Shown: in pieces, positions 11,123 to 64,000 of the stretch
Numbering within the stretch: the stretch's first letter is position 1
Layout: every line of letters starts with the position of its first letter
Source of the DNA: Octopus vulgaris
Taxonomy: Eukaryota
Length of the DNA: 64,000 nucleotides
NCBI GenBank assembly: GCA_951406725.2
Contig: OX597833.1
Location: 4,030,001 to 4,094,000, forward strand
Direction: 5' to 3'
The notes under the pieces: model-generated
The model's input: the letters and a program-made list of their open reading frames with translations, nothing else
Told to the model about the DNA's origin: nothing
Databases searched by the model: none
Program-made: the position numbers and the translations under genes

Positions 11123-11872
11123 TTAAAATACTGTGAGAAGGGCAAATACTCCGTAGACTAGAGCACATGGATAGGCAACAAGGAGCTGCTGGTGATCCAT
11201 TGCTAGGGCAGAGACAAACAGCTTTGAGGCCGAGAAACTACACCAGAAAACTGCCATGACAGTTAGGAATATACCAAGGGCTCCCTTCAAAGAGATCATG
11301 ATAGATATGGATGATAGGATCACCATTGGTAATAGACAATAGCCTAACACACTTATTGTACATCCAGACGAAACCCCAGTGATACTCATTAAGTTCAACA
11401 GACCATACATGGCCAGACACCCGACAACGCCGATTCCATAGATGTAACCGAAATGCAGTTTGCCAGACAGCATCAAAGCAGCACCGAAAGCAACGCAGAA
11501 TACTAAAGGTCCAGCCAGATCAGTGTCCTTCATTATGTTGTGGTCAGCATCTTGTAACGGGTTCAATACGGCCATTGTCTTTTGTGTGATGTGGTCAAAG
11601 TTAATGCCCAGTTCTTCCATTAGTGGTGGCTCATCCTCAAAACTGTCTGGTGCTGTAGTCTGGTACACGGTCGGTTCCGGTGTCATAATAGAACCAAAAT
11701 AGGGATCTTGACTGTTGGTCGTGATGTATTCTGTGGTGGTGGTCTGGCTGTAGACAAACTGACCGAACTGAGGATCCTGGCCAAAGCCTTGAGTGTCCAT
11801 GTTATATCCAGAACTTTGGTTTTCATAGTAGTTGGATGAGTAAAACTCTCCTTCTTGGCCGAAAGAAGACAT
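11123..11872 (-). CDS. YIPF5: Yip1 domain family member 5 (ER-Golgi trafficking), 249 aa, single coding exon
   Basis: Motifs [61 protein letters not shown]. The likely start is MSSFGQ (ATG at 11872). The extra 51 aa in the ORF track cross a splice acceptor (ttttctctcatttttccag, AG at 11895-11896). Confidence 0.95.
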
Positions 11873-14173
11873 TTTGGAACAATTTTGAGAATATCTGGAA
11901 AAATGAGAGAAAACAAAAATTAAAATTATTGAAAACGTAGGAAAACAAATGAAAATTATGCAACGATAAACAAATTCTTTTAACCCTTTTGATATCAACC
12001 CAGCTGAGACTGCCTCATTTTCCAAGCACCAACTTCATCATCATCATCATCATTTAGCGTCCACTTTCCATGCTGGCATGGGTTGGACGGTTCAACTGGG
12101 ATCTGGGAAGCCAGAAGGCTGCACCAGGCTCCAGTCTGATCTGGCAGTGTTTCTACAGCTGGATGCCCTTCCTAACGCCAACCACTCTGCGAGTGTAGTG
12201 GGTGCTTTTTACGTGCCACCGGCGCGGGGGTCAGGCGAGGCTGGCAAACAGCTATGGTCGGATGGTGCTTTTTACGTGCCAAATGACAAATTTATTTTAC
12301 AAAATTCTTCATTATTTTAAAAAGTTATTGAAACAGAGAACATGTTGCAACAAAAATGTGGTATCAAGGGTGATCGAAATTAAAACTTTCTGCCGAAATT
12401 TAAGTTCCAGACACCAGCTTAAATATTTACAGCTATTTTACTGAACTCTTTGTCATTTCCAAAATTTATTGAAACCATTGGTCCTCACAGAGACAATGAC
12501 GAAAGACCGAGAACTCTGGAGATAAGCTGTGACTGAGAAGACCCGGCAAATAAAGTGAGTTCACAGCTATAATCTACATAAGTGTTGCATAACCTGCCCA
12601 CTCAAAAGTACTTTGGATCGTAGGGCGAAATGCTGTGCTTGAGGAGACCTATTGAGTCAAGTACATCAACATCAAATGGAAATTGTAGTTGTGATGCCCC
12701 ATGCCGGTGGCATGTAAAAAGCACCATCCGAACATGGCCGATACCAGCGCTGCCTTGACTGACTTCCGTGCCGGAAGCATGTAAAAAGCATCAACTGATC
12801 ATGGTCATTGCTAGCCTCCTCTGGCCCCTGTGCTGGTAGCATATAAAAAGCACCCACTACACTCTTGGAGTGGTTGGCATTAGGAAGGGCATCCAGCTGT
12901 AGAAACACTGCCAGATCAGACTGGAGCCTGGTGCAGCCTCCTGGCTTCCCAGACCCCATTCAAACCATCCAACCCATGCCAGCATGGAAAACGGACGTAA
13001 AACAATGATGATGATGATGAAAAGCAGAAGTATGGCAGCAAAAAGGTTAAACTAAAATGTTGAGGGTTTAAATACAAAAAAAATGCAGGCACAAATCAGT
13101 TTGACTGGACATTGAATAAGAGAAATATTTTTGAAATTGGAGCCAAATATGCCCCTCAACCTGAATACATTAAGGTACTTTGATACGGGATTGAAAGAAG
13201 AGATGGAAGATCAAACTCGTGAGATATTGAAGTAACGAGAAAAGTAATGAGCAAATATTATCTTTGATTTAATGAAAAGCAATCACTGAGAGATAGACAA
13301 GAAGAAACAGCGGACATCCTTTGTCAGAGTCCTTCATTGGTTTAGTTGCAGCTAAACCAAGTGGTGGAGACATGTGAGGGATATTAGCAGGGTATTGGAG
13401 CCATCAGAGTGGTAGAGATCTGTGAAAGATGGGCAGCAGTGACTGTAGATAATCCATGTGGTATAGATATGTGATGGGTAAGTACTTGTGGGTGGTTGTG
13501 GCTAACCCAAGTGATAAGGATATGCAACTGCAAAACACTTTGTGGCTGAAAGCTAAATGAAAGAGTACAGTCATATTATTTGGTAAGTACTAGAGGATCA
13601 TCATCATCATCGTTTAACGTCCGCTTTCGATGCTAGCATGGGTTGGACGATTTGATTGTGGGCTGGCGAACCAGATGGCTGCACCAGGCTTCAATCTTGA
13701 TCTGGCAGAGTTTCTACAGCTGGATGCCCTTCGAAACACCAACCACTCTGAGAGTGTAGTGGGTGCTTTTACGTGCCACCAGTACGGGGGCCAGTCAGGC
13801 GGTACTGGCAACGACCTCGCTCGAATCTTTTTACATGTGCCAGTAAGGCGATGCAACTGCAAAACACTTGTGGCTGAAAGCTAAATGAAAGAGTACAGTC
13901 ATACTAATTGGTAAGTACTAGAGGATAATAATAGATAAACCAATGGTGCAGACAGGTGATAGATAAATACTATTGAATAATTAGAGCTAGATTATAGCTA
14001 AATCAATAAAAAGTGTACAGCAAACTTGCCATGAAGAGTGGAAAATCCAGTGTTTTGGTCACAGACCTTCTTCAGGGGGAAAATTGAAAGGAAAAAAATT
14101 AATAAAAGAGTTTTACATCGTTTAAGTTGAAACATTAATTTCTCTCCATGTGTGTGTGTGGAGTGTACATATA

Positions 14174-21119: not shown

Positions 21120-22360
21120 TTGAAGATACTAGAATTTGCCGGACAAGAAGCCTGTCTTAAAACTTTGTACAAATCGACAGGATTAAAAATTCGGGATACA
21201 GAGCAAGTAGCACGGCACAAGAAGAAAAATACCTCAGATCGAACTTGGGTACAATGTACATTGCTAAGGGGAAAAAAATATGGTACAGTAAAGATGAGAC
21301 TGCCCAAAGAAGATGAGGCTAGGAAGTACCCTTATAAAGATGAGGCTAGGAAGTACCCTAGTAAAGATGAGACTAGGAAGTACCCTAGTAAAGATGAGGC
21401 TAGGAAGTACCCTTGTAAAGATGAGGCTAGGAAGTACTCTAGTAAAGATGTAAAGATGAGGCTAGGAAGTACCCTAGTAAAGATGTAAAGATGAGGCTAG
21501 GAAGTACCCTAGTAAAGATGAGGCTAGGAAGTACCCTAGTAAAGATGGATGAGACCTCCCAAAGAAGGTGAGGCTAGGAAGTACCCTTATAAAGATGAGG
21601 CTAGGAAGTACCCTTGTAAAGATGAGGCTAGGAAGTACCCTAGTAAAGATGTACAGATGAGACCTCCCAAAGAAGGTTAGGCTAGGAAGTACCCTTATAA
21701 AGATGAGGCTAGGAAGTACCCTAGTAAAGATGAGGCTAGGAAGTACCCTAGTAAAGATGTAAAGATGAGACCTCCCAAAGAAGGTGAGGCTAGGAAGTAC
21801 CCTTATAAAGATGAGGCTAGGAAGTACCCTAGTAAAGATGAGGCTAGGAAGTACCCTAGTAAAGATGTAAAGATGAGGCTAGGAAGTACCCTACAGCAAC
21901 ACTAAGGAATGACAAACTGGTCTTCATGCCAATGTATTTTAGCTCTAGAGTACAGAAATTAAAGCTACAAGATGTGCCTCCAGAAGTAAAATATTTGCTG
22001 GTTGGTGACAGCTGTTCTCTGAAACAGAAACTGAGTCAAGGGATGGAGAGATTAATCCGAGGAAATTGGGAAAATGTGGAATCCATCCTGGATCTAATTA
22101 ATCTGCTGGACAGCTTATACATGGCTGTTGTGGACAGAAAGCCAAGGTGTCATTTGTGTGGCGGCAAACCATTTCAAGACTTTCTGCCCACAGCAAAATA
22201 TGAAAGAAGAGAGATTCGCCCCATCTTAACCACCTCTGCTGACACCATCACCATGGCAGTAACAACAGCAAAAAAACCCCAGCAGCATGTGGCCTCTGCA
22301 GCGATAAAAAGCAATGGCAATGCTAAAAACAACAGCCATGAAACCAGAAACAACATTAGG
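21120..22360 (+). pseudogene. Probable decayed LINE ORF1 (gag-like) interrupted by a minisatellite
   Basis: GKKYGTVKMRLPKEDEARKY ... MPMYFSSRVQKLKLQDVPPEV ... DRKPRCHLCG (zinc-knuckle remnant) followed by a T/A/K-rich tail. Confidence 0.45.
21289..21893 (+). repeat. 27-bp minisatellite AAAGATGAGGCTAGGAAGTACCCTAGT with higher-order variants
   Basis: About 20 directly visible units, with a recurring AAAGATGAGACCTCCCAAAGAAGGT variant. Confidence 0.95.
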
Positions 22361-22923
22361 AAGCAAGCTTCTTACCACACAGCCACTCCTACACCTATAC
22401 ATATAGATCGTTAGACACTACACACATTTTTTTCTCTGCTTGTTTTTTCTGTGTCCCTTTCTGTCGAAGAGCGTAGGCTCGAAACGTAAAAGATTTTTTC
22501 TATTCCTGAGCGTTATACTAATACATCTGTTTGTTTTGTGCACCACATGTCTTCCTCTTTTGTTTTTTTTTCATAAACTTTCCCTATATATATATATATA
22601 AATATATATATATCGGGAACGTGAAACAAATTTTGTTATATTTCTGCTGCTTTTAAATAAAGCATATTACTCTATCTCTGGTATTTGAGTACTCTTTTTT
22701 CACCTTGTTTCACATTTATGTGCTTACTTCGGTATATATATATATATATATATATATATAGGCACAGGAGCGGCTGTGTGGTAAGTAGCTTGTTTACCAA
22801 CTGCATGGTTCCGGGTTCAGTCCCACTGCGTGGCACCTTAGGCATGTGTCTTCTACTATAGCCTCGAGCCGACCAAAGCCTTGTGAGTGGATTTGGTAGA
22901 CGGAAACTGAAAGAAGCCCGTCG

Positions 22924-32015: not shown

Positions 32016-32121
32016 TTAATCTTTATGCATTTTACTTAATTTAACTTTTTACTTTTTTGTTTTATTGAAGGAGAATATATAAACAAAGAAAAGAGAGGGA
32101 GAAAAGGAGTCTATACGTTAC

Positions 32122-32283
32122 CAATGTCACAACATTTTGTGCCATAATAACCGGTCGCGCAACCCTGCTCACAGTAGCCATTATAAGGATTACAGTAACC
32201 ATAGAGACAATGACCACATTTAAAACAGTTTCCATGATCCCTGTAATATCCGTGCTGACAATGTCCCAAGCTGTATTGATAAT
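32122..32283 (-). CDS. Modular gene exon 17: Tyr-rich EGF-like module, 9 Cys
   Basis: 162 nt, phase 1-1, cttccag/GTAACG. (D)YQYSLGHCQHGYYRDHGNCFKCGHCLYGYCNPYNGYCEQGCATGYYGTKCCDI. Confidence 0.9.
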
Positions 32284-34850: not shown

Positions 34851-35009
34851 CATTGTCTTGACATCTTCTACCATAATAACCAGTTATGCAGCCATCTACA
34901 CAGTAACCTGTGTAAGGGTCACACAGATTATAGAGACAGGGACCACATTTCTTACATTTTCCATGGTATTTGTAGTATCCTGGGTAGCAAGGGTTTGTGT
35001 CATAATATC
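34851..35009 (-). CDS. Modular gene exon 16: Tyr-rich EGF-like module
   Basis: 159 nt, phase 1-1. (G)YYDTNPCYPGYYKYHGKCKKCGPCLYNLCDPYTGYCVDGCITGYYGRRCQDN. Confidence 0.9.
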
Positions 35010-36411
35010 CTGTAATTAAATTTTATATAATTTAATATCAGTCAATGATATCCAGACATCAGTGAAATAAGAATTGATATAGTTATGCATTTCGATTTTG
35101 GATTTGGTTTGCAAGATTCTTTATATGAGTTTGTGTGTTGAAGCATGTTCTGTTGTGTCTGAGGAGAGTCATTCTCTTTTAGTGCCTTATAATAGTCTTG
35201 ACTATTTCAAGAGTCAAAACTATTGAAAAGGTTGCAAGACGCAACAAAAATTTTAGGAAAATAAAAATAAGAAAAAAGTGGAAATTTTACCAGTGAGTGT
35301 GTTAAATTATAAGGCACAAAAAGAAAATGACTCTCCCCAGACACAACAGGACATAATTAATTGCTATAAGCAATTGCTATGGAAACGAGCAACAGATCTG
35401 TAGGCTTATTGTCCCATCTTCAGTTATTCATACAGGAAAGATGTCTACAGCTGTAGGTTTGTGTCACATTCTACAGGAACATTTAATTCTTAATAATCTA
35501 GATATGTTTCTGTTACAGAATGGAAATGAATGAATACTAGAAGGGATTGTTGTTATCTCCCTTTACATTAGAGAGTCCCTCATTGCTTTTACAATGAATG
35601 TAAACAAGGTTGTTATGATTGTAGTGATGTTGTGTGTTTCAGCACTGAGGGATTGATTTAGTGTCATGTGATACTGTATCTTACAGGAAATTGAAAGTTA
35701 ATTCCATGTAAACCCAGAAATAACATCTGCTCCCTTGTATATAAAATATAGGGATATAGGCGCAGGAGTGGCTGTGTGGTAAGTAGCTTGCTAACCAACC
35801 ACATGGTTCCAGGTTCAATCCCACTGCATGGCATCATGTGCAAATGTCTTCTGCTATAGCCCTGGGCCGACCAATGCTTTGTGAGTGGATTTGGTAGATG
35901 GAAACTGAAAGAAGCCTGTCGTATATATGTATATATATATGTATATGTATATATATATGTGTGTGTGTGTTTGTGTGAGTGTGTTTGTCTCCCCTAGCAT
36001 TGCTTGACAACCGATGCTTGTGTGTTTACGTCCCCGTCACTTAGCGATTCGGCAAAAGAGACCGATAGTATAAGTACTGGGCTTACAAAAGAATAAGTCC
36101 CGAGGTCGAGTTGCTCGACTAAAGGCCGTGCTCCAGCATGGCCGCAGTCAAATGACTGAAACAAGTAAAAGAGTAAAAGAGTAAGAGTATAGGGTGTTAA
36201 ACCCTCACCCACTAAATGCTTTGTACAACCACAGTTAACAACTGGTCCCTTGTATACAGAAAATAAACAGTGCAAAGCCATTGCCTATTTAGTCCTATGT
36301 AAATTCAGGAATAATAACCACTCCCTTTTATGAGGTATGAAGCCATCAATTACTTAATATTTTGTAAATCCAGAGATAATAACTGGTCCCTTTTATGTAG
36401 GGTATCTATAT

Positions 36412-37006
36412 ATTTCTTTACTACCCACAAGGGGCTAAGCATAGAGGGGACAAACAAGGACAGACAAACGGATTAAGTCGATTACATCGACCCCAGTGCA
36501 TAACTGGTACTTAATTTATCGACCCTGAAAGGATGAAAGGCAAAGTCGACCTCAGTGGAATTTGAACTCAAAACGTAGCGGCAGATGAAATACCTATTTC
36601 TTTACTACCCACAAGGGGCTAAACACAGAGGGGACAAACAAGGACAGACAAACGGATTAAGTCGATTACATCGACCCCAGTGCATAACTGGTACTTAATT
36701 TATCGACCCTGAAAGGATGAAAGGCAAAGTCGACCTCAGCAGAATTTGAACTCAGAACGTAATGACAGACGAAATACCTATTTCTTTACTACCCACAAGG
36801 GGCTAAACACGGAGGGGACAAACAAGGACAGACAAACGGATTAAGTCGATTACATCGACCCCAGTGCGTAACTGGTACTTAATTTATCGACCTCGAAAGG
36901 ATGAAAGGCAAAGTGGACCTCGGCGGAATTTGAACTCAGAACGTAACGACAGACAAAATACCACAAAGCATTTCGCCCGGCACGCTAACATTTCTGCCAG
37001 CTCACC
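36412..37006 (-). mobile_element. SINE with its ~184-bp body triplicated in tandem
   Basis: Three head-to-tail ATTTCTTTACTACCCACAAGGGGCTAA...GAATTTGAACTCAGAACG units with a single head. Family also at ~15005, 52090, 55940, 60438, 61818. Confidence 0.85.
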
Positions 37007-37057
37007 ACCAATGTAGAGTATATATATGTGGCATTGAGGTAAAAATCTATACTGTAC

Positions 37058-37216
37058 CTATATTATAACATCTTGAGCCATGGTAGCCATTTTCACAACC
37101 TCCTTTACAATAGCCATTGTAAGAATTACAGTAACCATGGAGACAGTAACCACATTTCCTACATTTTCCTTGGTACCTGTAGAATCCTAGGTGGCATTTA
37201 TGTTTTCCGTAATAAT
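37058..37216 (-). CDS. Modular gene exon 15: Tyr-rich EGF-like module
   Basis: 159 nt, phase 1-1. (D)YYGKHKCHLGFYRYQGKCRKCGYCLHGYCNSYNGYCKGGCENGYHGSRCYNI. Confidence 0.9.
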
Positions 37217-37308
37217 CTGTAAAATATTTCAAGACAATAAATGTACTTTGATGGGCAAAATGTGGAGAGATATACTGTGGTCAAATTGTAAATGTATAAC
37301 AAGAGATG

Positions 37309-37358
<50 letters not shown>

Positions 37359-38136
37359 TACTACTCATGTATTCTAATTTAACTTAAAAAAAAAATGAAC
37401 GAACTAGTGAGTTTAGTTTAATGGCCTACCAATGTATACTATGAGTTTCTTTGCCCTAGGAGTCGGGAAGACACTCAGCAAGAAATGGAAGCAAATTTGA
37501 AAGAAGAAAAAAAGATAGCAACAATAATAATAATAATAATAATAATAATAATTATAATAATAATAATAATAATGGTAATAATAATAATCTTTTCTACTAT
37601 AAGCTCAAGGCCTGGCTTTTGTAGCAAGGGGACCAGTCGATCACATCGACCCCAGTATTCAACTGGTACTTAATTTATCAACCCACAAAGGATGAAAGAC
37701 AATGTCAACGTCATCAGAATTTCAACATGGAATGTAATTAATCTCAGAAAATTCTAAATCAACAGACAATTTTATTTCAATAAAATTCAAATCTTTCTAT
37801 CATTTCATTTTACATTTTTAACTATTTAGAAAAAAAAATTTATTTGTTTAATCCTTTTTATACCAACCCATCTCAGATTACCCCTGATTCTATCATACCA
37901 AGTTCCTGTTTTAAAGCGATCTAAATTTAAACCGTTCATTAAAATTTCAAGTCCAAAATTCAGTTTAATTATGATCATGTTTTTTTGCTAAATTCTTCAT
38001 TATTTTAAAAGTTAATTGACAAAAAGACCGTATACTTCAAATGAATATGCTAATGAAAAGGTTAAACAGTTTTGAGACAGGAAACAGTTAAAGGCCCTGA
38101 ATAAGGGGATCAAACACTTAATAAAATATTACCTAC

Positions 38137-38694
38137 CTTTATAATTGCATCTCAGTCCATAATAATTTTTGGCACAACCATCGATACAGTAGCCATTGTA
38201 AGGGTAGCAGCTTCCGTGGAGGCAGTGACCGCATTTCTGACAGTTTTTACCATGTTTGTAATGTCCAGCTTGGCAACCGGTATAACCTTGTCCATAGCCG
38301 TGACCGTGGCTAATACCATATTGAGGACCAAAACCATAACCGTGACCATGACCATGACCATGTCCGTAACCATGACCATGACCATGTCCGTGACCATGAC
38401 CATGTCCGTGACCATGACCATGTCCGTGACCATGATGGTGGCCATAGCCTAATCGGCGACCATAGCGTAATCGGCGACCATAGCGTAATCGGCGACCATA
38501 ACCAAATCCATGGCCATAACCATGATGGTGGCCAAAACTAAATCGATGGCCATAACCATGACGACGACGATAACCATGATGATGACCATAACCATGACGA
38601 CGACCATAACCAATGCGATGACCATATGGACCACCATATCGAATTCCATGATGATAACCAGGGCCATAATCACCATAACCATATCCATAAGGAG
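38137..38694 (-). CDS. Modular gene exon 14: Gly/His/Tyr/Arg-rich block plus EGF-like module
   Basis: 558 nt, ttgcag/GTAGGT, phase 1-1; this frame is absent from the ORF track. (A)PYGYGYGDYGPGYHHGIRYGG..YGRRLRYGRRLRYGRRLGYGHHH(GH)n..GCQAGHYKHGKNCQKCGHCLHGSCYPYNGYCIDGCAKNYYGLRCNYK. Confidence 0.9.
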
Positions 38695-39822
38695 CTGCAA
38701 ATAAATTCAGACAATAGAATCAGATATTATTATTGTGGGGTGTCATAAACAAATTATGACGCTATAAAAATTCTCCCTACGACACTCTTGCTACCTTTAC
38801 CAATACCTACTGGTCATCTCTCAGTCTCTCACCCTTCCCCTATTTACTGTATCATCATCATCATAATTATCATTAATAACCCTACTCTCTCTTCTATTTA
38901 CCCTCTTGTACTTTGAGGGTACACTCTGACACCATATTTATCTCAGTTCCAGCTTTGTCCTAACTGCTTCCGTCCACCCTTACATTAATGTGAGGTAGCG
39001 ATGTATTTCCCCGACAGCAACAAACCTTTCTTTCTTTCATTTCCAATACCAAGCATAAGACCACCTTCATCATCATCATCATCATCATCATCATCGTCGT
39101 TTAACGTCCGTTTTCCTGCGCTAGCATGGGTTGGACGGTCCGACCGGGGATCTGGGAAACCAGAAGGCTGCACCAGGCTCCAGTCTGATCTGGCAGTGTT
39201 TCTACAGCTGGATGCCCTTCCTAACACCAACCACTCCGCGAGTATAGTGGGTGCTTTTTACGTGCCACCTGCACAGCTGCCAGGGGGGTCTGGCATCGGC
39301 CACGATCGGTTGGTGCTTTTAACTTGCCACCGGCACGGAAGCCAGCCAAGGCGGCGCTGGCATCGGCCACGTTCGGATGGTGCTTTTTATTCCTCTCTAC
39401 TATACTCTCATTCATGTGAGAAGACTCTTTGAGTCTTGTGAATTTCAGGACAACCTCACTAGTGCTGGTGCCATGAAAAACCATACCAAAACAAACATTG
39501 GAACATGGTGCAGTCCTCTTACTCATCAGTTCCTATCGAGCTGTCCAATCCATGCCAACAGGAGAGATAGGCACTAAATGATGATGATGATGATGATTAT
39601 GACAATCTATTCAGTACCTTGGGCTAGTGTCTTCCACTGTAGCCTTAGGCTGACCAAAGGCTTGTGAGTAGACTTGGTAGCTGGAAACTGAAAGAAGCCC
39701 ATTGTGTGTGTGTTTGTCCTCTCCACCTCCGCTTGACAACCGATGTTGATCCATTTACATCCCTGTAACTTAGCAGTTTAGCAAACGAGATTGATAGAAT
39801 AAGTACTAGGCTTATATATATA

Positions 39823-41046
39823 CTAGCAGTATCACCCAGCGTTGCTTGGGTTTGTTTCGACTCTTTAGAAACATTTTTCTGGTTGAAATACACCGAAAAA
39901 TGGTGACACAGCAGTCAAAAAATCGTAAAAAATAGGGATTTTCATAGAAAAAAGCACCTTTTTGATGTAAATAATTTTTGGTGTTAACATGGCCCAATTT
40001 GAATTTTTTCTTCTATGGAAGGAAGAGCAAGCCTTCTTCTACCATACTCTCAATTTTGGTCAACTTGTGCCGCAGGGTCTCGGAGGAGATGGTGTTAGTT
40101 GAAGGCCACCAAACCTGCCGTACACAGACAACTTCAGCTTTATATATATACTAGCAGTATCACCCGGCGTTGCTCGGGGTTGTAAGGGAAATAACTATAT
40201 AAGCATTTTTAGAGATGTAAAGTATAATAGCCATCTCAATATGGCTAACCACAAAGAGGGGCGTTACTGTAGCTTTTTACGTTCTGAGATTTAATAATAC
40301 ATTTTTAGAGAGTTACTTCCCTTATATAATAGCAAAAAAAAATGCATTAAAAATGGGAAAAAATGATGGTAAATTTTTTTTTAAATCGTAGACTCATCGT
40401 AGACGTGCACTAATACCCAGAAGGACTCGATATGAATCACGACTATAAGATACCCGCTTTTAGTTAAACTGCACCGCAAAATGTGGGAGTAGTTAGGAAT
40501 CTAAATCGTAGGAGACAGACAGCACACAACCTCACTTTTATATATATACTAGCAGTATCGCTCGGGTTTGTAAGGGAAATAACTATATAAGCATTTTTAG
40601 AGAGTTACTTCTCTTATAGATGCCAATTCGGGCTTTCTTAGCCATTTCTGTTTTGGTGTCTTCAAGCCATGAAGTCGTTGTTCTAAAAGAACGCTGGTCT
40701 CCTTGACAACGCTTTACGACGTTGATTTCCTTACACTCCCTTCCCCACAGCTTCACAAGGGAGGGAAGAAGGGGGAGAAGCAACACAGGTGTGACCATGG
40801 ACGCCAACTCCGCCACCATCGACACACGAAAAATTATGCATTAAAATGGAATAAAAAATGATGTTAAATTATTTTTAAAATCGTAGACTCATCGTAGACG
40901 CGCGCTAATACCCAGACGGGCTCGATATGAATCACGACTATAAGATAACCGAATTTGGTTAAACTGCACCGCAAAATGTGGGAGGAGTTAGGAATCTAAA
41001 TCGAAGGGGACAGACACTCACACAACTACAGTTTTATATATATAGA
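39823..41046 (-). mobile_element. Three head-to-tail non-autonomous Helitrons
   Basis: CTAG 3' ends at 39823, 40151 and 40549 (hairpin intact in the first two). The second and third are homologous to 31113-31508. Confidence 0.8.
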
Positions 41047-41349
41047 TATATATATATCATCATCATCATCATCATCATCATTTAGCGTCTGTTTTCCATG
41101 CTAGCATGGGTTGGACGGTTTAACTGGGGTCTGTGAAGCCGGAAGGCTTCATCAGGCCCAGTCAGATTTGGCAGTGTTTCTACAGCTGGATGCCCTTCCT
41201 AACGCCAACCACTCCTCGAGTGTAGTGGGTGTTTTTTACGTGCCACCTGCACAGGTGCCAGACAGAGCTGGCAAACGGCCACGAACGGACGGTGCTTTTA
41301 CGTGTCACCAGCATATATATTTGTTTCCTAGTTTCAGCTCAGAGCTGCG

Positions 41350-41380
<31 letters not shown>

Positions 41381-41489
41381 GCTGTTTCAATAGTTCTTGC
41401 CTAACCAATGTGAGTATGGAAGAAACAATGGTGATGATGATGATGATGATGTGAAATATCAATAGTTATAAACCAAAATGTTGCCTCAC

Positions 41490-41648
41490 CGTCATAATAA
41501 CACCGAGCTCCATAGTAACCATTGGCGCAACCCCCTTTGCAAAACCCATTGTAAGAGTTGCATAGCCCCGACAAGCAATGACCGCATTTCCTACATTTGT
41601 GGTGGTACTTATAATATCCCGAGTGACATTTTCGTAGACCGTAATACT
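41490..41648 (-). CDS. Modular gene exon 13: Tyr-rich EGF-like module
   Basis: 159 nt, tttacag/GTGAGG. (E)YYGLRKCHSGYYKYHHKCRKCGHCLSGLCNSYNGFCKGGCANGYYGARCYYD. Confidence 0.9.
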
Positions 41649-41814
41649 CTGTAAATAATTGGAAATGGTCGAATTAGTTGATAAATGGTATTAGTGATTT
41701 ATAGAGTAAACAGACTAAATGATTTATAGGCACAGGATTGGCTGTGTGGTAAGCAGCTTGCTTACCAACCACACGGTCATGGGTTCAGTCCCACTGCACG
41801 GCACCTTGGGCAAG

Positions 41815-42022
41815 TTCCCTTCTTGATCATTCCTAGTGCTCCTACGATCACTGGTATTGTAACCGCCTTGAGATGCCACATTTTCTCAATTTCAATGAGC
41901 AGGTTTTTATATTTTCTGAGCTTGTCAAACTCTTTCGCTGAGATATTATGATCACAGGGGATGCTCATGTCGATCAATAAGCAAACTTTATTGTTTTGGT
42001 CTTTCACAACAATATCCTGTTT
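41815..42022 (-). mobile_element. R4/Dong-like retrotransposon fragment (RLE endonuclease end)
   Basis: DIVVKDQNNKVCLLIDMSIPCDHNI..KYKNLLIEIEKMWHLKAVTIPVIVGALG. Confidence 0.8.
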
Positions 42023-42039
42023 ATTGTTATTATTATTAT

Positions 42040-42594
42040 TGAGTGAGAGAGCAGTTCATGCCATCAAAGTGACACTGGGGTAAAATATACGAAGCCCAAT
42101 ATACCCATCATGACTACCCGTCTGATAAAGATACACCAGGCACATGCATCACAACCATATGTGCGCGACATGGTGATCTCATATCAAGATAAACAGCACA
42201 TGACCTTGCAGGTAGGGCCCAGTTAGAATTTTCTTCAGGTTGAGTAGCCCATCCCGCTCAAACGGTCCCTGAATAAGGGTTGTTTAAAGATGTTGAAAGA
42301 ACCACCCATGTTTCCAGAGGTGAACTATTCAAACTCCAAAGAATCCCTCTCAACACATGGCTATGATGCTCCCCCACTACTTCTGCTCGTGATCAGAGAT
42401 GCACATATCGTCAGCCACTAAGGGACATGCTCAACTGGTTAAGGTCAAACAACTGACAAGCAAATCTGTGGTATTGAGCAGAATATTTCCTGTAACCCAT
42501 CTTTTATACCAAGACAAAACAATGTACATGATAACACTTCCAATCAGTTAAGATCAGAAGCCATGAGAGCCACTGCCTGGTACTGCATCAGAGC

Positions 42595-42598
<4 letters not shown>
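42040..42598 (-). mobile_element. (AAT)n-embedded non-autonomous retroelement, full length
   Basis: Same family as 15528-15921; (TAA)n on both sides. Confidence 0.8.
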
Positions 42599-42630
<32 letters not shown>

Positions 42631-42639
42631 CATTATTTT

Positions 42640-43135
42640 ATTGTCTTTGCACAGCTTCTAATGCTGGAGATGTACTACAGTGTCAGCTGTTCACTACCAG
42701 TGAACAAAGGTAACACCCCTTATTTTTCGAGCACCATCCAGAGTATTCGAGCAGTTCCAAGCAGTGCTGTTTTCTGCAAGTGCTCCACCCTTATTGCAGC
42801 CCCTATTTGTTCCATGTACTTCTCAAGATTTTTACTCACTGTTCCCAGGGTTCTGACAATTATTGGTACTACTACCACCTTTTTCATCGACCACAACTGC
42901 TTAACCTCCCAAGCTAACCTGTCATACCTATCGACTTTTCTTTCTTCCGTATCTCATGCCTTGTTGTCAGCTGGTCATGCTATATCTATGACCCAGCATC
43001 ATTTGCGTTCTTTCTCAATTAACACTATGTCTGGTTTCCTATTCTCTATCTCATGGTCGCACTGAATCATAAAATCCCACAGGATCTTTGCATTATCATT
43101 TTCGATGATGCCTTTGGGTTTATGTTCATACCACA
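42640..43135 (-). mobile_element. R4/Dong-like retrotransposon 3' fragment
   Basis: WYEHKP..KILWDFMIQCDHEIENRKPDIVLIEK..IDIA..LQKTALLGTARIL, a PD-(D/E) RLE domain, lying between (TAA)n tracts. Confidence 0.85.
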
Positions 43136-43478
43136 TAATTATTATTATTATTATTACTACACTCTCGGAGTGGTTGGCGTTAGGAAGGGCATCCAGCTGT
43201 AGAAACACTGCCAGATCTGACTGGCCTGGTGCAGCCTTCGGGCTTGCCAGACCCCAGTTGAACCGTCCAACCCATGCTAGCATGGAAAGCGGACGTTAAA
43301 CGATGATGATGATGATGATGATTATTCTATGTTTGACTTTTGCTTTATGTCTGTACAAGTTGGCTCCAAGTCTCACCCAGAGACCTCAAGAGACAACAGG
43401 TTGGAAGTTCACGTTGTTGTTATGCTTAAAGTGCCATATATTTGGGGTTTTTTTTTGGGTGTTGTACTAGTGAATGTC

Positions 43479-43518
<40 letters not shown>

Positions 43519-43589
43519 GTTATTGTTATACATTTTCTCAAACAATAAAGCAACAAAAATACTAATAACTCAGAGTGTTAGTAATTTAC

Positions 43590-44243
43590 CTTTATAATCA
43601 CATCTCGGTCCGTAATAGTTTAATTCACAACCATCAGAGCAGTAACCACTGTAAGGGTAACAGTATCCATGGAGACAGTGGCCACATTTTCGGCAGCTCT
43701 TGCCATTTCTGTAATATCCTGTACCACAATCACCATAACCATTATAATAGCCATAACCATAACTGGGACCATATCCATAACCATGTCCATATCCAAAACC
43801 ATGTCCATATCCAAAACCATGACCATGTCTGTAACCATAACCATGACCAAGATGATGACCATAGTGGCGGCCACGTCTGCTATGAAAACCAGAACGGTGA
43901 TGACGACCATGATAGGGACCAAAACCATGACCGTGATGATGACCATGACCATGATGATGACCGAAACGACGACGATGACCGAAACCGTGGTGACGACCGA
44001 AACTGCGGCGATGACCGTAACCGTGGTGATGACCATAACCTTGATGATGACCGAAATGACGACGATGACCAAAACCGTGGCGACGACCGAAACTGCGGCG
44101 ATGACCGTAACCGTGGTGATGACCGTGACCATGATGATGACCATAACCTCGGCGACGACCGAAACCGCGGTGACGACCGAAACCGCGGTGACGACCGTAA
44201 CCGCCGTGACTATGAACATTACTGTAACCGCGGCGATGGGATC
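43590..44243 (-). CDS. Modular gene exon 12: Gly/His/Arg-rich block plus EGF-like module
   Basis: 654 nt, tttacag/GTAAAT, phase 1-1. (G)SHRRGY..GRHRGFG..GHHHGYGHRRSFG..DCGTGYYRNGKSCRKCGHCLHGYCYPYSGYCSDGCELNYYGPRCDYK. Confidence 0.9.
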
Positions 44244-44594
44244 CTGTAAATAATTGCAAACAAAATAATTAGATTTCATTAGCAAAAACACTGTCACTTC
44301 TTTACTACACAAATCCTAATTGTCAAAAGAATAAAGAATAATGTTTGAGGTGGACTAACACACTACTATATGTTAATAATTAGGGACTCAATCACTCAAA
44401 TACTTGATTGATGTTTTTTTAGATTTAATGACAATTCAAGCAATCCTATATAGTAGTATCACATTTGTTAATATGTGTGTGTATATATATATACACACAC
44501 ATGTATATATATGTATATATATACCGGAGTAAACACATAAATGTGAAACAAGGTGGAAAAAAGAGTACTCAAATACCAGTGGTAGAGTAATATG

Positions 44595-44759
44595 CTTTAT
44601 TTAAAGCAGCAGAAAATTCAACAAAACCTGTTACTCTGAGTTCCACGTTCCCGTTCGTCGGACAGTTTCTGCTAGAATCTAGCAAAAACTGTCCGACGAA
44701 CGGGAACGTGAAACTCAGAGTAACAGCTTTTGTTGAATTTTCTGCTGCTTTAAATAAAG
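44595..44759. repeat. ~165-bp palindrome (Penelope-like inverted terminus)
   Basis: ~80-bp arms around GCTAG-AAT-CTAGC. A related fragment lies at 22615-22735. Confidence 0.85.
44689..44726 (+). ncRNA. Minimal hammerhead ribozyme-like motif (U4C variant)
   Basis: CUGU-CCGACGA-ACG GGAA CGU-GAAA-CUCAGAG-U-A-ACAG. Confidence 0.55.
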
Positions 44760-44880
<121 letters not shown>

Positions 44881-47628
44881 ATATATGTATGTATGTATAT
44901 ATATGTATATATATTAAATTCAAGTTACGTTGAAAGTCAACAAACAAAGTTTGCTTTAGAAGCGTTGAGATGTATTGAAAGATAAAGATAAGGAAATAAT
45001 TTTATTCTCAAGCGCAGGATAATGCTAATAATATAGCCTGAACAGGATAAACTACCCCTGTTTTGCAGAAAAATCTGCATTTGAGAATAAAATTATTTCC
45101 TTATTTGTGTGTGTGTATATATGTGTGTGTGTGTGTATGCATATATATATTTTTTTTTTTTACTTGTTTCAGTCATTTGACTGCGGCCATGCTGGAGCAC
45201 CGCCTTTAATCGAGCAACTCGACCCCGGGACTTATTCTTTGTAAGCCTAGTACTTACTCTATCAGTCTCTTTTGCTGAACCGCTAAGTGACGGGGACGTA
45301 AACACACAAGCATCGGTTGTCAAGCAATGCTAGGGGAGACAAACACACTCACACAAACACACACACACATATATATATACATATATATATACATATATAC
45401 GACAGGCTTCTTTCAGTTTCCGTCTACCAAATCCACTCACAAGGCATTGGTCGGCCCGGGGCTATAGCAGAAGACATTTGCACAAGATGCCACGCAGTGG
45501 GATTGAACCCGGTACCATGTGGTTGGTTAGCAAGCTACTTACCACACAGCCACTCCTGCGCCTATATATATATATATTACATCAACCAGACTAACAGATG
45601 CTGTTATACATCACTGGTCACAATGCGCTTTGCATCATTTAAACTTACAGATGATGCCAGCCTGTTGGCTAGAGGGGCCAGTGATGTTCCTCTGAATGAA
45701 AGCAAAAGCTCAGCTGGGCCCGACATGATGCAAGATTCAAAGACAACCGGTGACGATGTGCAATGGTCAAGTGGCATCGCAGAGATCAGAAAAGGTTGAT
45801 ATAGGGAGGTACATACACACATACATATTCTGTTCTTTTACCTGTTTCAGTCATTTGACTGCAGCCATGCTGGAGCACTGCCTTTAGTCAAACATATCGA
45901 CCCCACGATTTATTCTAGTACTTATTCTATCGGTGTCTTTTGCTGAGCTGCTAAGTTACAGGAAGGTAAACACACCAACATTAGTTGTCAAGCGATGGTG
46001 GGGGAACAAACACAGACACACAAACATATACATGTATGTGTGTGTATATATATATATATATTGGGCTTCTTTCAGTTTCCTTCTACCAAATCCGCTCACA
46101 AGGCTTTGGTTGGCCCAAGGCTATAGTAGAAGACACTTGCCCAAGGTGCCACGCAGTGGGACTGAACCCAGAACCATGTGGTTGGGAAGCAAGCTTTTTA
46201 CAACATAAGTATATATATGTGTGTGTGTGTGTGTGTTTGGATGTGTGCATAAATTCAATTAATTAAATGCTGTGCAATATTTAGTTTTGACTCTTCATGT
46301 TCTGAGTTCAAATCCCTGGTTGTAATTCACGGTTCCCTGCAGTGCAAATTTGTGGCCCTGTTATTATGCTAAAAATATAATTCACACACACACACACACA
46401 CATATACAAACATATATGTCTGCTACATATAAATTTATATATATATACACACATATATACGTACATATACCTGGACAAACAGAGGGAGTGTTTGTCCAGG
46501 ATAGGACTACACAGCCACAGCAGAAAATGTATCAGGACATGAAATATAAAAGCCGGACTAGACTACTTTATGCGCAACTCCATTGTCTCCCGAGACAAAA
46601 AGAATGCCAACCAATATATGTCTGCAACATATAAATTTATATATATACACACATATATACATACATACATATACATATATATACATGTATGTATGCATGT
46701 ATATACGCTATATATAAATATATGTGTGTGTGTGTTATATTATGCTTGTGCACATAGATATATTTAATCTATCATTATCATTGTCATTATCATCATTATT
46801 ATTATTATTACCATTATTATTATTTTTATCATTATTATTATCATTGTTGTTGTTGTTGTTGTGAGTAATTACAAACAAAGTCATAACTAAAAAAAAAGTG
46901 TTGAGTGCTCTCAATATATAATGTGCGTTAAACATTTATTTCCTTCATAGATATCAGTGCCTGAAATATTGGGATTTTCAATATTTACAGCAACCAAACT
47001 AACTGAACCTACAAACTCTTGGATTTTAACATTACATATTAAAGTTGTAGTACTCCCATAACAATGGTTTCAGGCCAATATCAAGGAATTTCACTACAGC
47101 GAATATTTTATACACTGTCTGCAACTCACCATTAGCTCTGTCTTTCTGTTTTCATTTGTATTATTATTTATGACTTCATATTTCTCATTCAAACATAAAC
47201 TTCAATGTTTTGGATTATTATTGTATAAACTGTTCAAGACAGGCCATATATATGTTTTATGTTTTATGTTTTCCAGTTTCAGCTCTTGAGCTGTGGCCAT
47301 GCTGGGGCACGAGCACTTTCCTGCACTATTGCAAAGAAAATACTACATTGCTCTCATAGCATATTATGCAAAAATGCAATTATGGGCAAATCTACCAGCA
47401 TTGTATAGTCAATCTTAGGAAGGGCCATTCCTAAAATAATATAGTTTAAAACAGTGCAATTATATTGTAAATTTTATATATGACAAACTTGTATTACAAT
47501 AAAGTGGTTTATCATAAAACTGTGTTAAAAAATACAGACTTGTATTCTATTAATATATTATATATTTAAACTTGTAATAATAAAGTTATGTGGAAAATAA
47601 ATAAGATTTCCTAATGATTATAACTTAC

Positions 47629-47676
47629 CTCCCGCAGGATAACCTCTCGAACGATATGGGTGTATAGCGGATCGAA
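47629..47676 (-). CDS. Modular gene exon 11: 16-codon linker
   Basis: atttccag/GTAAGT, 48 nt, phase 1-1. (V)RSAIHPYRSRGYPAG. Confidence 0.75.
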
Positions 47677-48185
47677 CTGGAAATATTTTGGTATCAAAAT
47701 TAATATTAATGTCACAAATTTGTCTTTTAGATGTTATTGTTGCTGTTTTTCTTTTTTTTTTTCAGTATTAAAATATATTTATGGAGAATTTTAAACAAAT
47801 CGTTTTTTTTTTACTTGTTTCAGTCATTTGACTGCGGCCATGCTGGAGCACCGCCTTTAGTCGAGAAAATCGACCCCATAGCTTATTCTGTGTAAGCCTA
47901 GTACTTATTCTATCGGTCTCTTTTGCCGAACCGCTAAGTTACGGGGATGTAAACAAAACAGCATCGGTTGTCAAGCAATGTTGTGGGGACAAACACGGAC
48001 ACACAAACACACACACACATATACGACAGGCTCCTTCCAGTTTCCGTCTACCAAATCCACTCACAAGAATTTGGTTGGCCCGAGGCTTATAGTAACAGAC
48101 ACGTGCCCAAGGTGCCACACAGTGGGAGTGAACCCATGACCATGTGGCTGGTAAGCAAGCTACTTACCACACAGCCACTCCTGCA

Positions 48186-48238
<53 letters not shown>

Positions 48239-48452
48239 ATATAGATAATTCATTATTGCCATTATTGCTTTCATGTTCTCATGGGTCATATGGAATTTAT
48301 TGAGACAGATCTTTTTTACAGCAGGATGCCCTTCCTGTCGCCAACCCTCACTTATTTTCCAAGCAAGGTAACATTTCTTCCATGACCAGAAATGTTTTTA
48401 CAGAATGTAAAGAGGCATAACAAGATACTGATATCGCTAATTTGCTTTCCTT

Positions 48453-48577
<125 letters not shown>

Positions 48578-48750
48578 CCTTTCTGCTAGCACAAGGCCTC
48601 AAATTTGGGGGAAGTCTTAAGTCGATTACATTGACCCCAGTGCATAACTGGTACTAATTTTATCGACCTTGAAAGGATGAAAGGAAAAGTTAACCTCGGT
48701 AGAATTTGAGCTCAGAACGTAAAGACAGACGAAATGCCACTAAGCATTTC

Positions 48751-48785
<35 letters not shown>

Positions 48786-49739
48786 TGATAGATAATAATA
48801 ACAACACCAATAATTCTTTCATTTGTCAAAGTAACACCAGATGAGTGGGAGCACAAGGCCAGCAGTTTTTATGGGGAGAATTTAGTAAATACTATTGTCC
48901 CCAGTATCAGACTGGTGTTTATTACATCAACCCCAGGGAGATGAAAGATAAAGCTACCCTTGGCAGGATTTGATCTCACAATGTCAAAAGTGAGAACAAA
49001 TACTGCAAAACACTGTTTTCTCTTACTTAACTCCTGTCCTAATCCACCACACTCTCTTTTACTCTTTTTACTCTTTTACTTGTTTCAGTCATTTGACTGC
49101 GGCCATGCTGGAACACCACCTTTAGTCGAGCAAATCGGCCCCAGGATTTATTCTTTGTAAGCCCAGTACTTATTCTATCGGTCTCTCTTGCCGAATCGCT
49201 AAGTTACGGGGATGCAAACACACCAGATCGGTTGTCAAGCAATGCTAGGGGGACAAACACAGACACACAAACACACATAAAAAACACCATCCAAGTGTGG
49301 CCGTTCGCCAGCCTCGTCTGGCACCTGTGTCGGTGGCACATAAAATCACCCACTACACTCTCGGAGTGGTTGGCGTTAGGAAGGGCATCCAGCTGTAGAA
49401 ACACTGCCAGATCTGACTGGCCTGGTGCAGCCTTTGGGCTCCCCAGACCCCTGTTGAACTGTCCAACCCATGCTAGCATGGAAAGCGGATGTTAAACGAT
49501 GATGATGATGATGATGATATATACGACAGGCTTCTTTCAGTTTCCGTCTACCAAATCCACTCACAAGGCATTGGTCAGCCCGAGACTATAGTAGAAGACA
49601 CTTGCCCAAGGTGCCACGCAGTGGGACTGAACCCGGAACCATGTGGTTGGTTAGCAAGCTACTTTACCACACAGCCACTCCTGTGTTACTAATACTAATA
49701 ATAATTATGAAGATAGAAACACGAGAATTCTTCACTCAC

Positions 49740-49928
49740 CTGATCGATGGCACTTTTGTCCATGCCACCCTGGTTCACAACCTCTTCTACAATCACCAGT
49801 CTGTTTGTCACATGGTTGTCCGTTTTCACATCGACCGCACTTTTTAATTCCCTTCCGGAAGATATAATAGCCATCTGGACATGTCGTTACACGATAACGA
49901 GGCTCAGGTTTTACCACAACATTAGTTA
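49740..49928 (-). CDS. Modular gene exon 10: basic 7-Cys EGF-like module
   Basis: 189 nt, tttacag/GTGAGT. (V)TNVVVKPEPRYRVTTCPDGYYIFRKGIKKCGRCENGQPCDKQTGDCRRGCEPGWHGQKCHRS. Confidence 0.9.
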
Positions 49929-49980
49929 CTGTAAATAATGATTAATTATATTTGTGTCAGGAAAGAAATTTTAAAAGTAA

Positions 49981-50371
49981 TTAGCAGTATCGCCCGGCGT
50001 TGCTCGGGTTTGTAAGGGAAATAACTATATAAGCATTTTTAGAGATGTAAAGTATAATAGCCATCTCAATATGGTTAACCACAAATGGGGGGGTTACTGT
50101 AGCTTTTTACGTTCTGAGATTTAATAATAAAGTTTTAGAGAGTTACTTCCCTTATATATGCCAAAAATACATTAAAAATGGGAAAAATTGATGGTAAATT
50201 TTTTTAAAATCGTAGACTCATCGTAGACGCGCGCTAATACCCAGAAGGGCTCGATATGAATCACGACTATAAGATACCCGGTTTTGGTTAAACTGCACCG
50301 CAAAATGTGGGAGTAGTTAGGAATTTAAATCGTAGGAGACAGACACACAACCTCACTTTTATATATAAAGA
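49981..50371 (-). mobile_element. Non-autonomous Helitron
   Basis: Homologous to 31113-31508 and 40151-40547, with hairpin CCCGGCGTTGCTCGGG. Confidence 0.8.
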
Positions 50372-51042
50372 TATATCAAAAATTATTCTCCTTAATTTTT
50401 CACGTCTGTTTTGTTGGGTTTTTTTGTTTGTTTTTCATGTTTTTCCCTTTTCTCGTGGGTTAGATGAATATATTATTAAGGCCTTGTTTTACAGCCAGAT
50501 GCCTTTCCTGTAGCTAACCCTTACAGATCGAAAGCTGCTACGCATTTTGTATGAGGCATTAATGATTCTATCAGCTCACTACCTCGATCAAGGGTACAAT
50601 GCCCTAACAGCTAGGTTTCATGGCCTAGTGGGTAGGGTGTTGCACCTATGATCATAAGACCATGGTTTCAAATCCCAGACTGGCTATGTGAAAAACACTT
50701 TTCCCATTACTCGAGTCCACGGATCTGTAAAGTGTAACCTTGTGAGATCAGCTTACAAGGGTGAGACACTGACTCAGGTAAAACACTTGAACGGAGGTCA
50801 CGTGGGCCACATTTTGTATTCAGAAATCAGTAACTTGAATAGTACAACTCATACAGTGACCCGTGACTTGTTGTGATTGGTTGTCCAACCACTTCAAAGG
50901 ATCGTCATCATATTCTATTGATCCAAATGGCTGAAAGACAAATTTCACCTCAGCAGTATTTGAACCCAGAACATGATGAGTGAGAAGATATATTGCAAAG
51001 CATTTTGTTCAAAGTACAAGAATTAAAGAATTCGGCACTCAC

Positions 51043-51228
51043 CTCTTTGCTCACATCTTTGTCCATACCATCCTGTTATACAACCTCTTATACAATAACC
51101 AGTCTGTTTGTTACATGGTTCTCTGTTTATACATTGACCACACTTTTTTATTCCGTTGCCGATGATATAATAGCCATCTGGACATGTTGGTACACGATAA
51201 CGAGGCTCAGGTTTTACCACTTTAGTTA
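51043..51228 (-). CDS. Modular gene exon 9: basic 7-Cys EGF-like module
   Basis: 186 nt. (V)TKVVKPEPRYRVPTCPDGYYIIGNGIKKCGQCINREPCNKQTGYCIRGCITGWYGQRCEQR. Confidence 0.9.
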
Positions 51229-51278
51229 CTGTAAATAATAATTAATTATATTTGTGTCAGAAAAGAAATTTTAGAAGA

Positions 51279-51331
<53 letters not shown>

Positions 51332-63556: not shown

Positions 63557-64000
63557 CATTCCTGTAAATGATAAATTATTAATTTTTTTATTAGAAAAGT
63601 TTATAATAATATAATTTCTTGCATTTACATAAATGCAGAAATTAATATATTCAAGTTATGATTGATTTTACTGACATCCAATATACAATCGTTCCAAACA
63701 GCAGCTTAATAATGTCAGAGTAGCTTTGTTAAATTCCTCAAAATTCTCAAAATTAACTGAAGCAAAGACAGAATATTCCAACAGAAATATGGTTTACAAA
63801 AATCTTGAAGTGATTTAATCTGAAGCTTTTCATTAAAATTCCATGATAATTTATGTTCTAATTAGCAACTTAATAATGACAAAGCTTTCTTAGTAAATTC
63901 CTTATTATTTTCGAAATTAATTGAAATAAAGTCAGAGTATTCCAACAGAAATATGATAACAAAAGACTTTGACTCTGCTTTTCTCAGAAATAAAAAGAGT

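Follow-up and report, generated by a model that had tools for sequence, protein, structure and literature searches.

A candidate secreted structural or cement protein gene of Octopus vulgaris, combining Gly/His/Arg/Tyr repeat tracts with predicted laminin-type EGF modules

Proteins in which Gly/His/Tyr-rich tracts are joined to disulfide-knotted modules are characteristic of secreted glues and of hard tissues. In squids, the histidine-rich beak proteins (HBPs) are described as hydrophobic, with 16-19% Ala (PMC11931252, PMC9999432), an isoelectric point (pI) near 6 and GHGxY/GAGFA repeats, and as coacervating upon His deprotonation (PMC11931252), in a beak said to contain no transition metals (PMC9999432). 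The polychaete jaw protein Nvjp-1, with 36% Gly, 27% His, GYGHG and (GH)n motifs and about 15% acidic residues, is reported to assemble at seawater pH driven by Zn (PMC9999432). Among mussel foot proteins, MFP-2 is described as having 11 epidermal growth factor (EGF) repeats. For Pvfp-5beta, the unmodified form is reported to coacervate at neutral or basic pH without 3,4-dihydroxyphenylalanine (DOPA), cation-pi contacts being invoked and one other study disagreeing (PMC9314366). The cuttlefish egg-case proteins SepECP1/2 are reported to be cationic, Cys-rich, N-glycosylated and repeat-free, forming a disulfide-linked mesh and sharing a CX2GX2CCXGCCX8-9C motif (PMC4500399). In octopus, egg cement is described as a product of the oviducal gland (PMC8976471). 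According to the genome comparison, HBPs were found in three decapodiform genomes and not in O. bimaculoides (PMC9068888), and beak proteomics is reported so far for one squid species (PMC9716703). Here we describe a candidate for the agent by which extracellular structures of octopus are hardened or glued, an apparently unannotated gene on the minus strand of a 64,000-nucleotide (nt) window of the Octopus vulgaris genome (contig OX597833.1, positions 4,030,001-4,094,000, assembly GCA_951406725.2), in which two exons rich in Gly, His, Arg and Tyr stand among tandem Cys-rich modules.

A scan for Cys-rich frames revealed one module in 16 copies between 32.1 and 63.0 kb, each copy in a separate exon. 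Together with a 48-nt candidate mini-exon at 47676-47629 they make 17 exons, all of them open, of a length that is a multiple of three, in phase 1-1 and with AG/GT ends. The two repeat exons are exon 12 (44243-43590) and exon 14 (38694-38137); the limits drawn for them in a first-pass annotation of this DNA were exact at both the acceptor (44243) and the donor (38137), and its proposal that they are coding and spliced agrees with their open phase-1 frames and with a contig described below. Plus-strand frames across the same bases (e.g., 43569-44249) were ruled out, since that spliced contig agrees with the minus-strand GT/AG ends. Exons 1-10 are likely part of the same gene as exons 12-17. The predicted features, in window coordinates, are:

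43590..44243, minus: exon 12, 654 nt, phase 1-1; Gly/His/Arg/Tyr/Phe tract of 171 amino acids (aa) followed by an 8-Cys module; contigs from sequence runs X2, X18 and, partly, X6
43930..44199, minus: hexad block of exon 12; 15 successive [YFH]-G-[HR]-[HR]-x-[GSHR] units in three 90-nt higher-order repeats
43771..43824, minus: (Gly-His/Tyr/Phe)9 dipeptide block of exon 12
43600..43728, minus: putative 8-Cys laminin-type EGF-like module of exon 12; Tyr 8, net charge +3
41490..41648, minus: exon 13, 159 nt, module only; optional, being skipped in X2 and covered in X18
38137..38694, minus: exon 14, 558 nt, phase 1-1; Gly/His/Tyr/Arg tract of 139 aa followed by an 8-Cys module; alignments of X2 and X18 contigs end at 38137 and at 38694/38695
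38429..38626, minus: hexad block of exon 14; 9 of 11 units match the pattern, with YGRRLR twice
38330..38431, minus: (Gly-His/Tyr/Phe)17 block of exon 14, with (GH)10
38147..38275, minus: 8-Cys module of exon 14; Tyr 6, His 4, net charge +4; sister to the exon 12 module
37058..37216, minus: exon 15, module only; bin depth in X2 and X18 equal to exon-only cover
34851..35009, minus: exon 16, module only (Tyr 9); predicted, outside the contig-aligned stretch
32122..32283, minus: exon 17, perhaps the terminal exon; its module has a ninth Cys
47629..47676, minus: exon 11, candidate mini-exon of 48 nt without Cys; predicted, no direct contig
49740..62998, minus: exons 1-10, module exons that were duplicated recently and carry Pro/Arg/Val linkers; only 7 Cys in 8 of the 10

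Both repeat exons show the same block order, in which Arg-rich hexads are followed by (Gly-His/Tyr/Phe)n, with n = 9 or 17, and then by the 8-Cys module. Gly, His, Arg, Tyr and Phe together make up 91% of the exon 12 tract (G 30, H 26, R 16, Y 11 and F 7%) and 88% of that of exon 14 (G 36, H 23, Y 15 and R 12%). The hexads noticed earlier in exon 12, GRHRGF, GHRRSF and GHHHGY, are indeed present, each twice. Identity at a lag of six residues amounts to 0.48 in exon 12 and 0.51 in exon 14 versus 0.20 and 0.22 in shuffled sequences, values that were reached in none of 10,000 shuffles each, and the 6-residue periodicity exceeds chance. The pattern [YFH]G[HR][HR]x[GSHR] is matched 17 times in exon 12 and 9 times in exon 14 (shuffle maxima of 8 and 4 in 5,000), but since it was fitted post hoc from these very sequences, the lag-6 test is the fairer one. 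In exon 14, the GYG motif and the (GH)n run that had been described are present, with GYG 11 times and 10 GH pairs in a single run, whereas YGRRLR is found twice rather than three times, the third copy reading YGRRLG. The suggested placement of Arg beside aromatic residues also holds, with 16 of 27 Arg in exon 12 and 10 of 16 in exon 14 within two residues of Tyr or Phe, counts taken without a shuffle control.

The composition of the tracts recalls known biomaterials in part only. Gly/His/Tyr-rich modular repeats in a cephalopod are shared with the squid HBPs (DgHBP-1 to 3), but both tracts have no Ala, no GAGFA and no GHGxY/H pentapeptide, contain a single Asp each, are hydrophilic (hydropathy -1.7 in exon 12 and -1.5 in exon 14) and strongly basic (pI 11.5 and 10.3), and belong to a far larger Cys-rich chain. 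The first-pass annotation had proposed pH- or metal-switched assembly, with squid beak proteins as a parallel. The computed charge falls from about +0.4 per residue at pH 4-5 to +0.15 (exon 12) and +0.11 (exon 14) at pH 8.2, where net charges of +26 and +15 are retained; His titration thus strips some two thirds of the charge without reaching neutrality. Therefore, self-coacervation by His titration alone is unlikely, and condensation by partial titration, salt screening and probably a polyanion or metal is favored. The Zn/Cu binding that had been associated with the squid beak belongs with polychaete jaws. With Nvjp-1 and the Glycera protein MTP, as described, the tracts share a Gly content of 30-36%, a His content of 23-27% and GYGHG and (GH)n motifs; they differ from Nvjp-1 in having one Asp per tract and 12-16% Arg instead of about 15% Asp plus Glu, and in a strict 6-residue period between folded modules. 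SepECP1/2 are likewise cationic, Cys-rich cephalopod proteins, but the 17 exons are repetitive, hold no N-glycosylation sequon and lack the reported motif in their modules. By the features compared, the gene belongs neither with the HBPs nor with SepECP or Nvjp-1.

Searches with the repeat exons were negative. The exon 12 module searched against proteins of 381-2000 aa gave no homologue, alignment of both repeat exons to proteins of 101-380 aa (8000 candidates scored) gave no relative, and an Atlas feature search with exon 12 gave no usable match; these negatives are weak, because low complexity and the length limits blunt such searches. When the four reading frames were submitted whole to Pfam, the single match (TrAA12) was compositional and below threshold, and exon 14 compared with solved structures gave only compositional matches to Gly/Arg/His stretches. 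Structure prediction for the whole of exon 12, from two sequences, yielded a predicted local distance difference test score (pLDDT) of 35 throughout; as the module scored equally low, this prediction is uninformative and does not prove disorder.

Evidence for splicing comes from assembled contigs. Twenty sequence runs contain part of 38100-44300, of which none is recorded as RNA and 14 are guessed to be RNA; the words shared with the window are mostly intronic repeats. Four runs, all of assembled contigs (X2, X18, X6 and X14), were aligned to 37000-44400, their depths being unfit for ranking expression. Record 18 of X2 (656 nt) consists of 432 nt of exon 12 up to its donor and 224 nt of exon 14 from its acceptor, with nothing between them: in X2, guessed to be RNA, exon 12 is spliced directly to exon 14 and exon 13 is skipped. 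The alignments of contigs X2-17 and X18-9 end at 38137 and the contigs continue beyond. The exon 15 bin has a depth of 1.88 in X2 and 18.2 in X18, matching the contig depth multiplied by 159/247 (1.87 and 18.15), which indicates that exon 15 is covered without its flanks; the exon 13 bin of X18 likewise has a depth of 9.29, that is, 14.4 x 159/247. X18 contigs end precisely at 43590 and at 38695, the latter lying one base ahead of exon 14. Such ends are expected where exon 14 can be preceded by either exon 12 or exon 13, since these two share only the final G, and forms with and without exon 13 would thus both be present in X18. In X6, a contig aligned at 44245-44079 is preceded by 94 unaligned letters, so exon 12 has an upstream exon; otherwise X6 gave fragments only and the exon bins of X14 were uncovered, and neither counts as evidence either way. 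X18 also gains a net 33 nt within exon 12, which leaves the frame intact. Seven exonic differences were listed in the contigs, five of them residue-changing. Two are A-to-G in the transcript sense, at 38311 (Ser to Gly, exon 14) and 44057 (His to Arg, exon 12), and could be alleles, another species, mis-aligned repeat copies or RNA editing; the change at 44057 was not used as evidence of editing, as the contig may sit on the wrong 90-nt copy.

The disulfide module that had been proposed to cap each repeat exon is present, with eight Cys in both, all of which could pair inside one exon. The first-pass annotation had left the kind of module unnamed and had overlooked both the optional exon 13 and the 7-Cys modules that lie upstream. 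Pfam matches of the 16 modules were weak, with EGF_laminin in 10 (best expectation value, E, 0.019), Furin-like_2 in 9 and no match for the exon 12 module. A profile built from the 16 modules matched 1531 cluster-representative proteins (E<=0.001); those that bear a name are mollusc proteins of the MEGF10/11-like, draper-like, SCARF-like and receptor phosphatase/kinase kinds, the others being unnamed, and the match to human SCARF1 was weak (E 0.051). A structure model of the module (pLDDT 81) aligned weakly to the laminin-type EGF repeats of perlecan, laminin and netrin (template modeling score 0.56, E 0.2; Z 3.5, root-mean-square deviation 3.5 over 50 residues). The aligned range of netrin, 377-437, presumably straddles two repeats, which fits an exon that combines the closing Cys pair of a repeat with the six-Cys core of the repeat that follows. 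Judging from these matches, the module is a laminin-type EGF repeat, shifted in register, of the kind found in molluscan Draper/MEGF10-like proteins, now Tyr-rich and cationic. Tandem disulfide modules rich in Tyr and Lys/Arg are also what is described for MFP-2 and Pvfp-5beta, but those are 6-Cys, Notch-ligand-like EGF domains, whereas here 8-Cys laminin-type modules are combined with Gly/His tracts; no mussel foot protein stands among the listed sequence and fold matches of the module, an absence that is not exclusion, and the likeness is convergent at best.

The departure from the receptor class can be measured against 235 modules drawn from 109 of 225 fetched relatives. Modules of exons 12-17 hold 6-9 Tyr versus 1.8 +/- 1.0 in the relatives (at least 6 in two of the 235), a net charge of +1 to +6 versus -1.1, and a first Cys loop of 10 residues versus 8 in 232 of the 235. 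His density reaches 16-17 per 40 residues in the tracts and does not exceed 7 in any of 226 relatives. Cys spacing is shared with Draper, MEGF10, MEGF11 and SCARF-like proteins, while the contiguous repeats of the latter are replaced by linkers or long tracts, and eight modules lack one Cys. Receptors of the Draper/MEGF10 type have a signal peptide and an N-terminal EMI domain, as well as one transmembrane segment followed by a cytoplasmic tail. By its sequence, the gene descends from this class but no longer resembles it.

Among the modules of exons 12-17, the proportion of synonymous differences (pS) is 0.79 and that of nonsynonymous differences (pN) 0.25 over 15 pairs, a pattern indicative of purifying selection. 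In a tree of 34 modules (16 from the window, 3 from an O. bimaculoides protein and 15 hand-picked relatives), built on 45 columns, few for so many rows, exons 12-17 form a clade (100/99) in which modules 12 and 14 are sisters (100/91). pN is lowest, at 0.17, in two pairs, 12-14 and 13-15; this points to the duplication in tandem of a unit of one tract exon and one plain exon, although the tree leaves 13 and 15 unjoined. Exons 1-10, in turn, stem from a recent tandem duplication that included introns (1645 nt at 92.8% and 1035 nt at 91.1%; 49724-63132). In 8 of these 10 modules the second Cys is missing, and the eight pooled gave a pS of 0.13 and a pN of 0.07. Among 226 fetched proteins such a 7-Cys module occurs in that O. 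bimaculoides protein and in none of the other 225. This protein, XP_014771587.1, is the best relative of the upstream modules (83% identity over 69 aa, exon 8 region); it was automatically named SCARF1-like and spans upstream-type modules only, without repeat exons. The spare thiols of the 7-Cys modules and of the ninth Cys in exon 17 would allow disulfides between chains.

Altogether, the 17 exons comprise 1240 codons without a Met or a hydrophobic segment (best 19-residue mean 0.43), whereas a segment above 1.9 is present in 168 of 226 fetched relatives. Read-through of the exon 17 donor meets a stop after three codons, AATAAA follows at 32066, and record 17 of X2 has 535 unaligned letters, equal to exons 15-17 plus 55, which would place the end at 32067. 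These observations are suggestive, and only suggestive, of a gene that ends at exon 17. Another candidate for the last exon, at 29135, has a weak acceptor.

On balance, we consider it somewhat probable that this octopod gene arose by exon duplication and encodes a secreted structural or cement protein and, as part of the same judgment, that its product functions like a fusion of EGF-type mussel foot proteins with polychaete Gly/His jaw proteins. The spliced contig, the excess of pS over pN, the sister modules with their alignable tracts, the shift in Tyr and charge, which parallels Pvfp-5beta and MFP-2, the closeness of the tracts to Nvjp-1 in composition, the absence of a hydrophobic segment in the 17 exons, the in-frame insertion of X18 and the 7-Cys module common to this gene and O. 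bimaculoides support this interpretation. In such a protein, rigid Tyr/Lys modules and flexible sticker tracts would alternate as beads on a string. The chain could be soluble in an acidic granule, where the tracts would be highly charged; upon release into seawater, His titration would remove about two thirds of that charge and salt would screen the remainder, allowing condensation through contacts of Arg with aromatic residues and of Tyr with Tyr, in which a polyanion (such as a sulfated glycan or an acidic protein) or metal probably takes part. Curing might follow by His-metal, His-catechol or di-Tyr links and also by disulfides through the spare Cys, and exon skipping would shift the ratio of modules to stickers. 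Beak, radula, sucker cuticle, egg-string cement and hatchling skin are candidate tissues. Several points count against this interpretation. The mechanism comes from compositional analogy alone and the runs carry no tissue record; searches of sequences and solved structures gave no homology to characterized biomaterial proteins; the connection of exons 1-10 to exons 12-17 is a likely but predicted one; and neither a Met nor a signal peptide lies in the window, an exon scan of 44244-64000 giving no convincing candidate, so that secretion is deduced for a gene whose 5' end lies beyond 64000. Moreover, an AATAAA within 60 nt is expected by chance in about 11% of cases and the spliced exon 15 has a similar read-through, while five of the six contig differences within or adjoining the tracts change a residue, pointing to weak constraint on their exact sequence. 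A bolder version of this interpretation, which we regard as rather unlikely, is that the gene is the octopus's independent counterpart of the squid HBPs, or of the protein of some other structure that is hard or sticky, for example the cement of egg strings. It would then stand for an octopod family of modular material proteins not described so far, in which a laminin-type EGF exon of receptor origin left its array and became Tyr-rich and cationic, with Arg/His hexad stickers, spare thiols and tuning by exon skipping. Condensation in this family would depend on salt, polyanion and metal and not on pH alone.

Other explanations have to be weighed. The product might serve in mucus, skin or eggs as a protein of barrier or defence, in which cationic tracts bind microbes and Zn/Cu, perhaps freed as Arg-Arg-cut peptides resembling shepherin or histatin, while the modules resist proteases. 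The tracts are strongly cationic and contain 10 (exon 12) and 6 (exon 14) dibasic sites; in the cited descriptions, the Gly/His-rich Shepherin I has Zn(II) tied to its fibrils and antifungal activity (PMC10698721) and the cuttlefish egg-case proteins are both structural and bacteriostatic (PMC4500399). Nevertheless, neither tract contains the furin site R-x-[KR]-R, the Arg pairs are intrinsic to the hexad, and a chain of 16 modules is sizeable for a peptide precursor, so we find this explanation unlikely as an alternative; a defence role can coexist with a structural one. The narrow form of the first proposal, an HBP-like protein that coacervates by itself on His deprotonation and hardens the beak through His-catechol cross-links, has in its favor the 23-26% His together with Gly and Tyr, and also the report of HBPs missing from O. 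bimaculoides, since an octopus would then need another solution. We think it quite unlikely in view of the composition, pI and hydropathy given above, which contrast with the hydrophobic, Ala-rich HBPs as described, and the runs offer no tissue to place it in.

The ancestry of the module raises the possibility of a membrane-bound scavenger receptor like Draper, MEGF10 or SCARF, whose cationic tracts would bind polyanionic ligands. All named relatives of the module point in this direction, as do the automatic name of the O. bimaculoides fragment and the weak SCARF1 match, and a further exon may lie after exon 17. However, the 17 exons hold no transmembrane segment and may be followed by a stop and AATAAA, and the linkers, the longer first loop, the altered make-up and a His density beyond that of every fetched relative set this gene apart, which makes a receptor distinctly improbable. 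Very improbable, in our opinion, is that the tracts are near-neutral slippage expansions in the linkers of a repeat gene, functionless in themselves. Codon use is narrow (GGT for 44 of 52 Gly in exon 12 and 35 of 50 in exon 14), the genome is rich in microsatellites and tract lengths differ between organisms. Yet alphabet, period and block order are common to two exons although their modules have almost reached saturation at synonymous sites (pS 0.74); with 62% identity over the whole exons, this indicates that the tract design is old and kept. In addition, the open frame is held over 513 nt in exon 12 and 417 nt in exon 14, and the 90-nt copies differ at 3 of 19 synonymous versus 5 of 71 replacement sites, small numbers as these are. 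A secreted structural or cement protein therefore remains our preferred reading.

Several further observations were made in the window. Between exons 4 and 5, an 815-nt (CCA)n/9-mer microsatellite occupies 58392-59206; read on the minus strand it would give poly-Pro/Lys/Thr or poly-His, with stops in all three frames and no splice sites found. Just upstream of exon 12, an inverted repeat by a long (TA)n run lies at about 44560-44760, its two strands translating nearly alike, and a dispersed intronic element of 184 nt is repeated head to tail at 36411-36962 (3.0 copies) and 52145-52486 (1.9 copies). Outside the gene, an unbroken 303-codon frame on the minus strand at 11126-12034 has a Yip1 domain (PF04893, E 4.9e-10, above the cut-off) and is apparently an intronless YIPF5-like gene or a retrocopy. 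On the plus strand, 21310-21893 is a 27-nt tandem array of 20 copies with a 108-nt higher order, whose translation contains KDEARKYPS-like repeats; it continues into a 183-codon frame (21863-22411) that has no Pfam match. A frame of 89 codons on the minus strand at 3-269 has what we take to be a ubiquitin-like look.

Repeats rich in Gly, His and Tyr are common in secreted proteins of invertebrates, so the kind of sequence described here is already known. Our literature search found no paper on this gene or on XP_014771587.1, which subscription papers and supplements may list. The joining of Gly/His tracts to Tyr-rich laminin-type modules of receptor origin, together with spare thiols and exon skipping, does not seem to have been described before. 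For octopus extracellular structures, the gene offers a concrete candidate with spliced contigs, guessed to be RNA, and with peptides that can be tested. If our interpretation is true, the gene would be a clear example of how a receptor repeat is recruited to make a material protein, in convergence with the EGF adhesives of mussels and the Gly/His proteins of worm jaws, and its Arg/His hexads would be new building blocks for coacervates.

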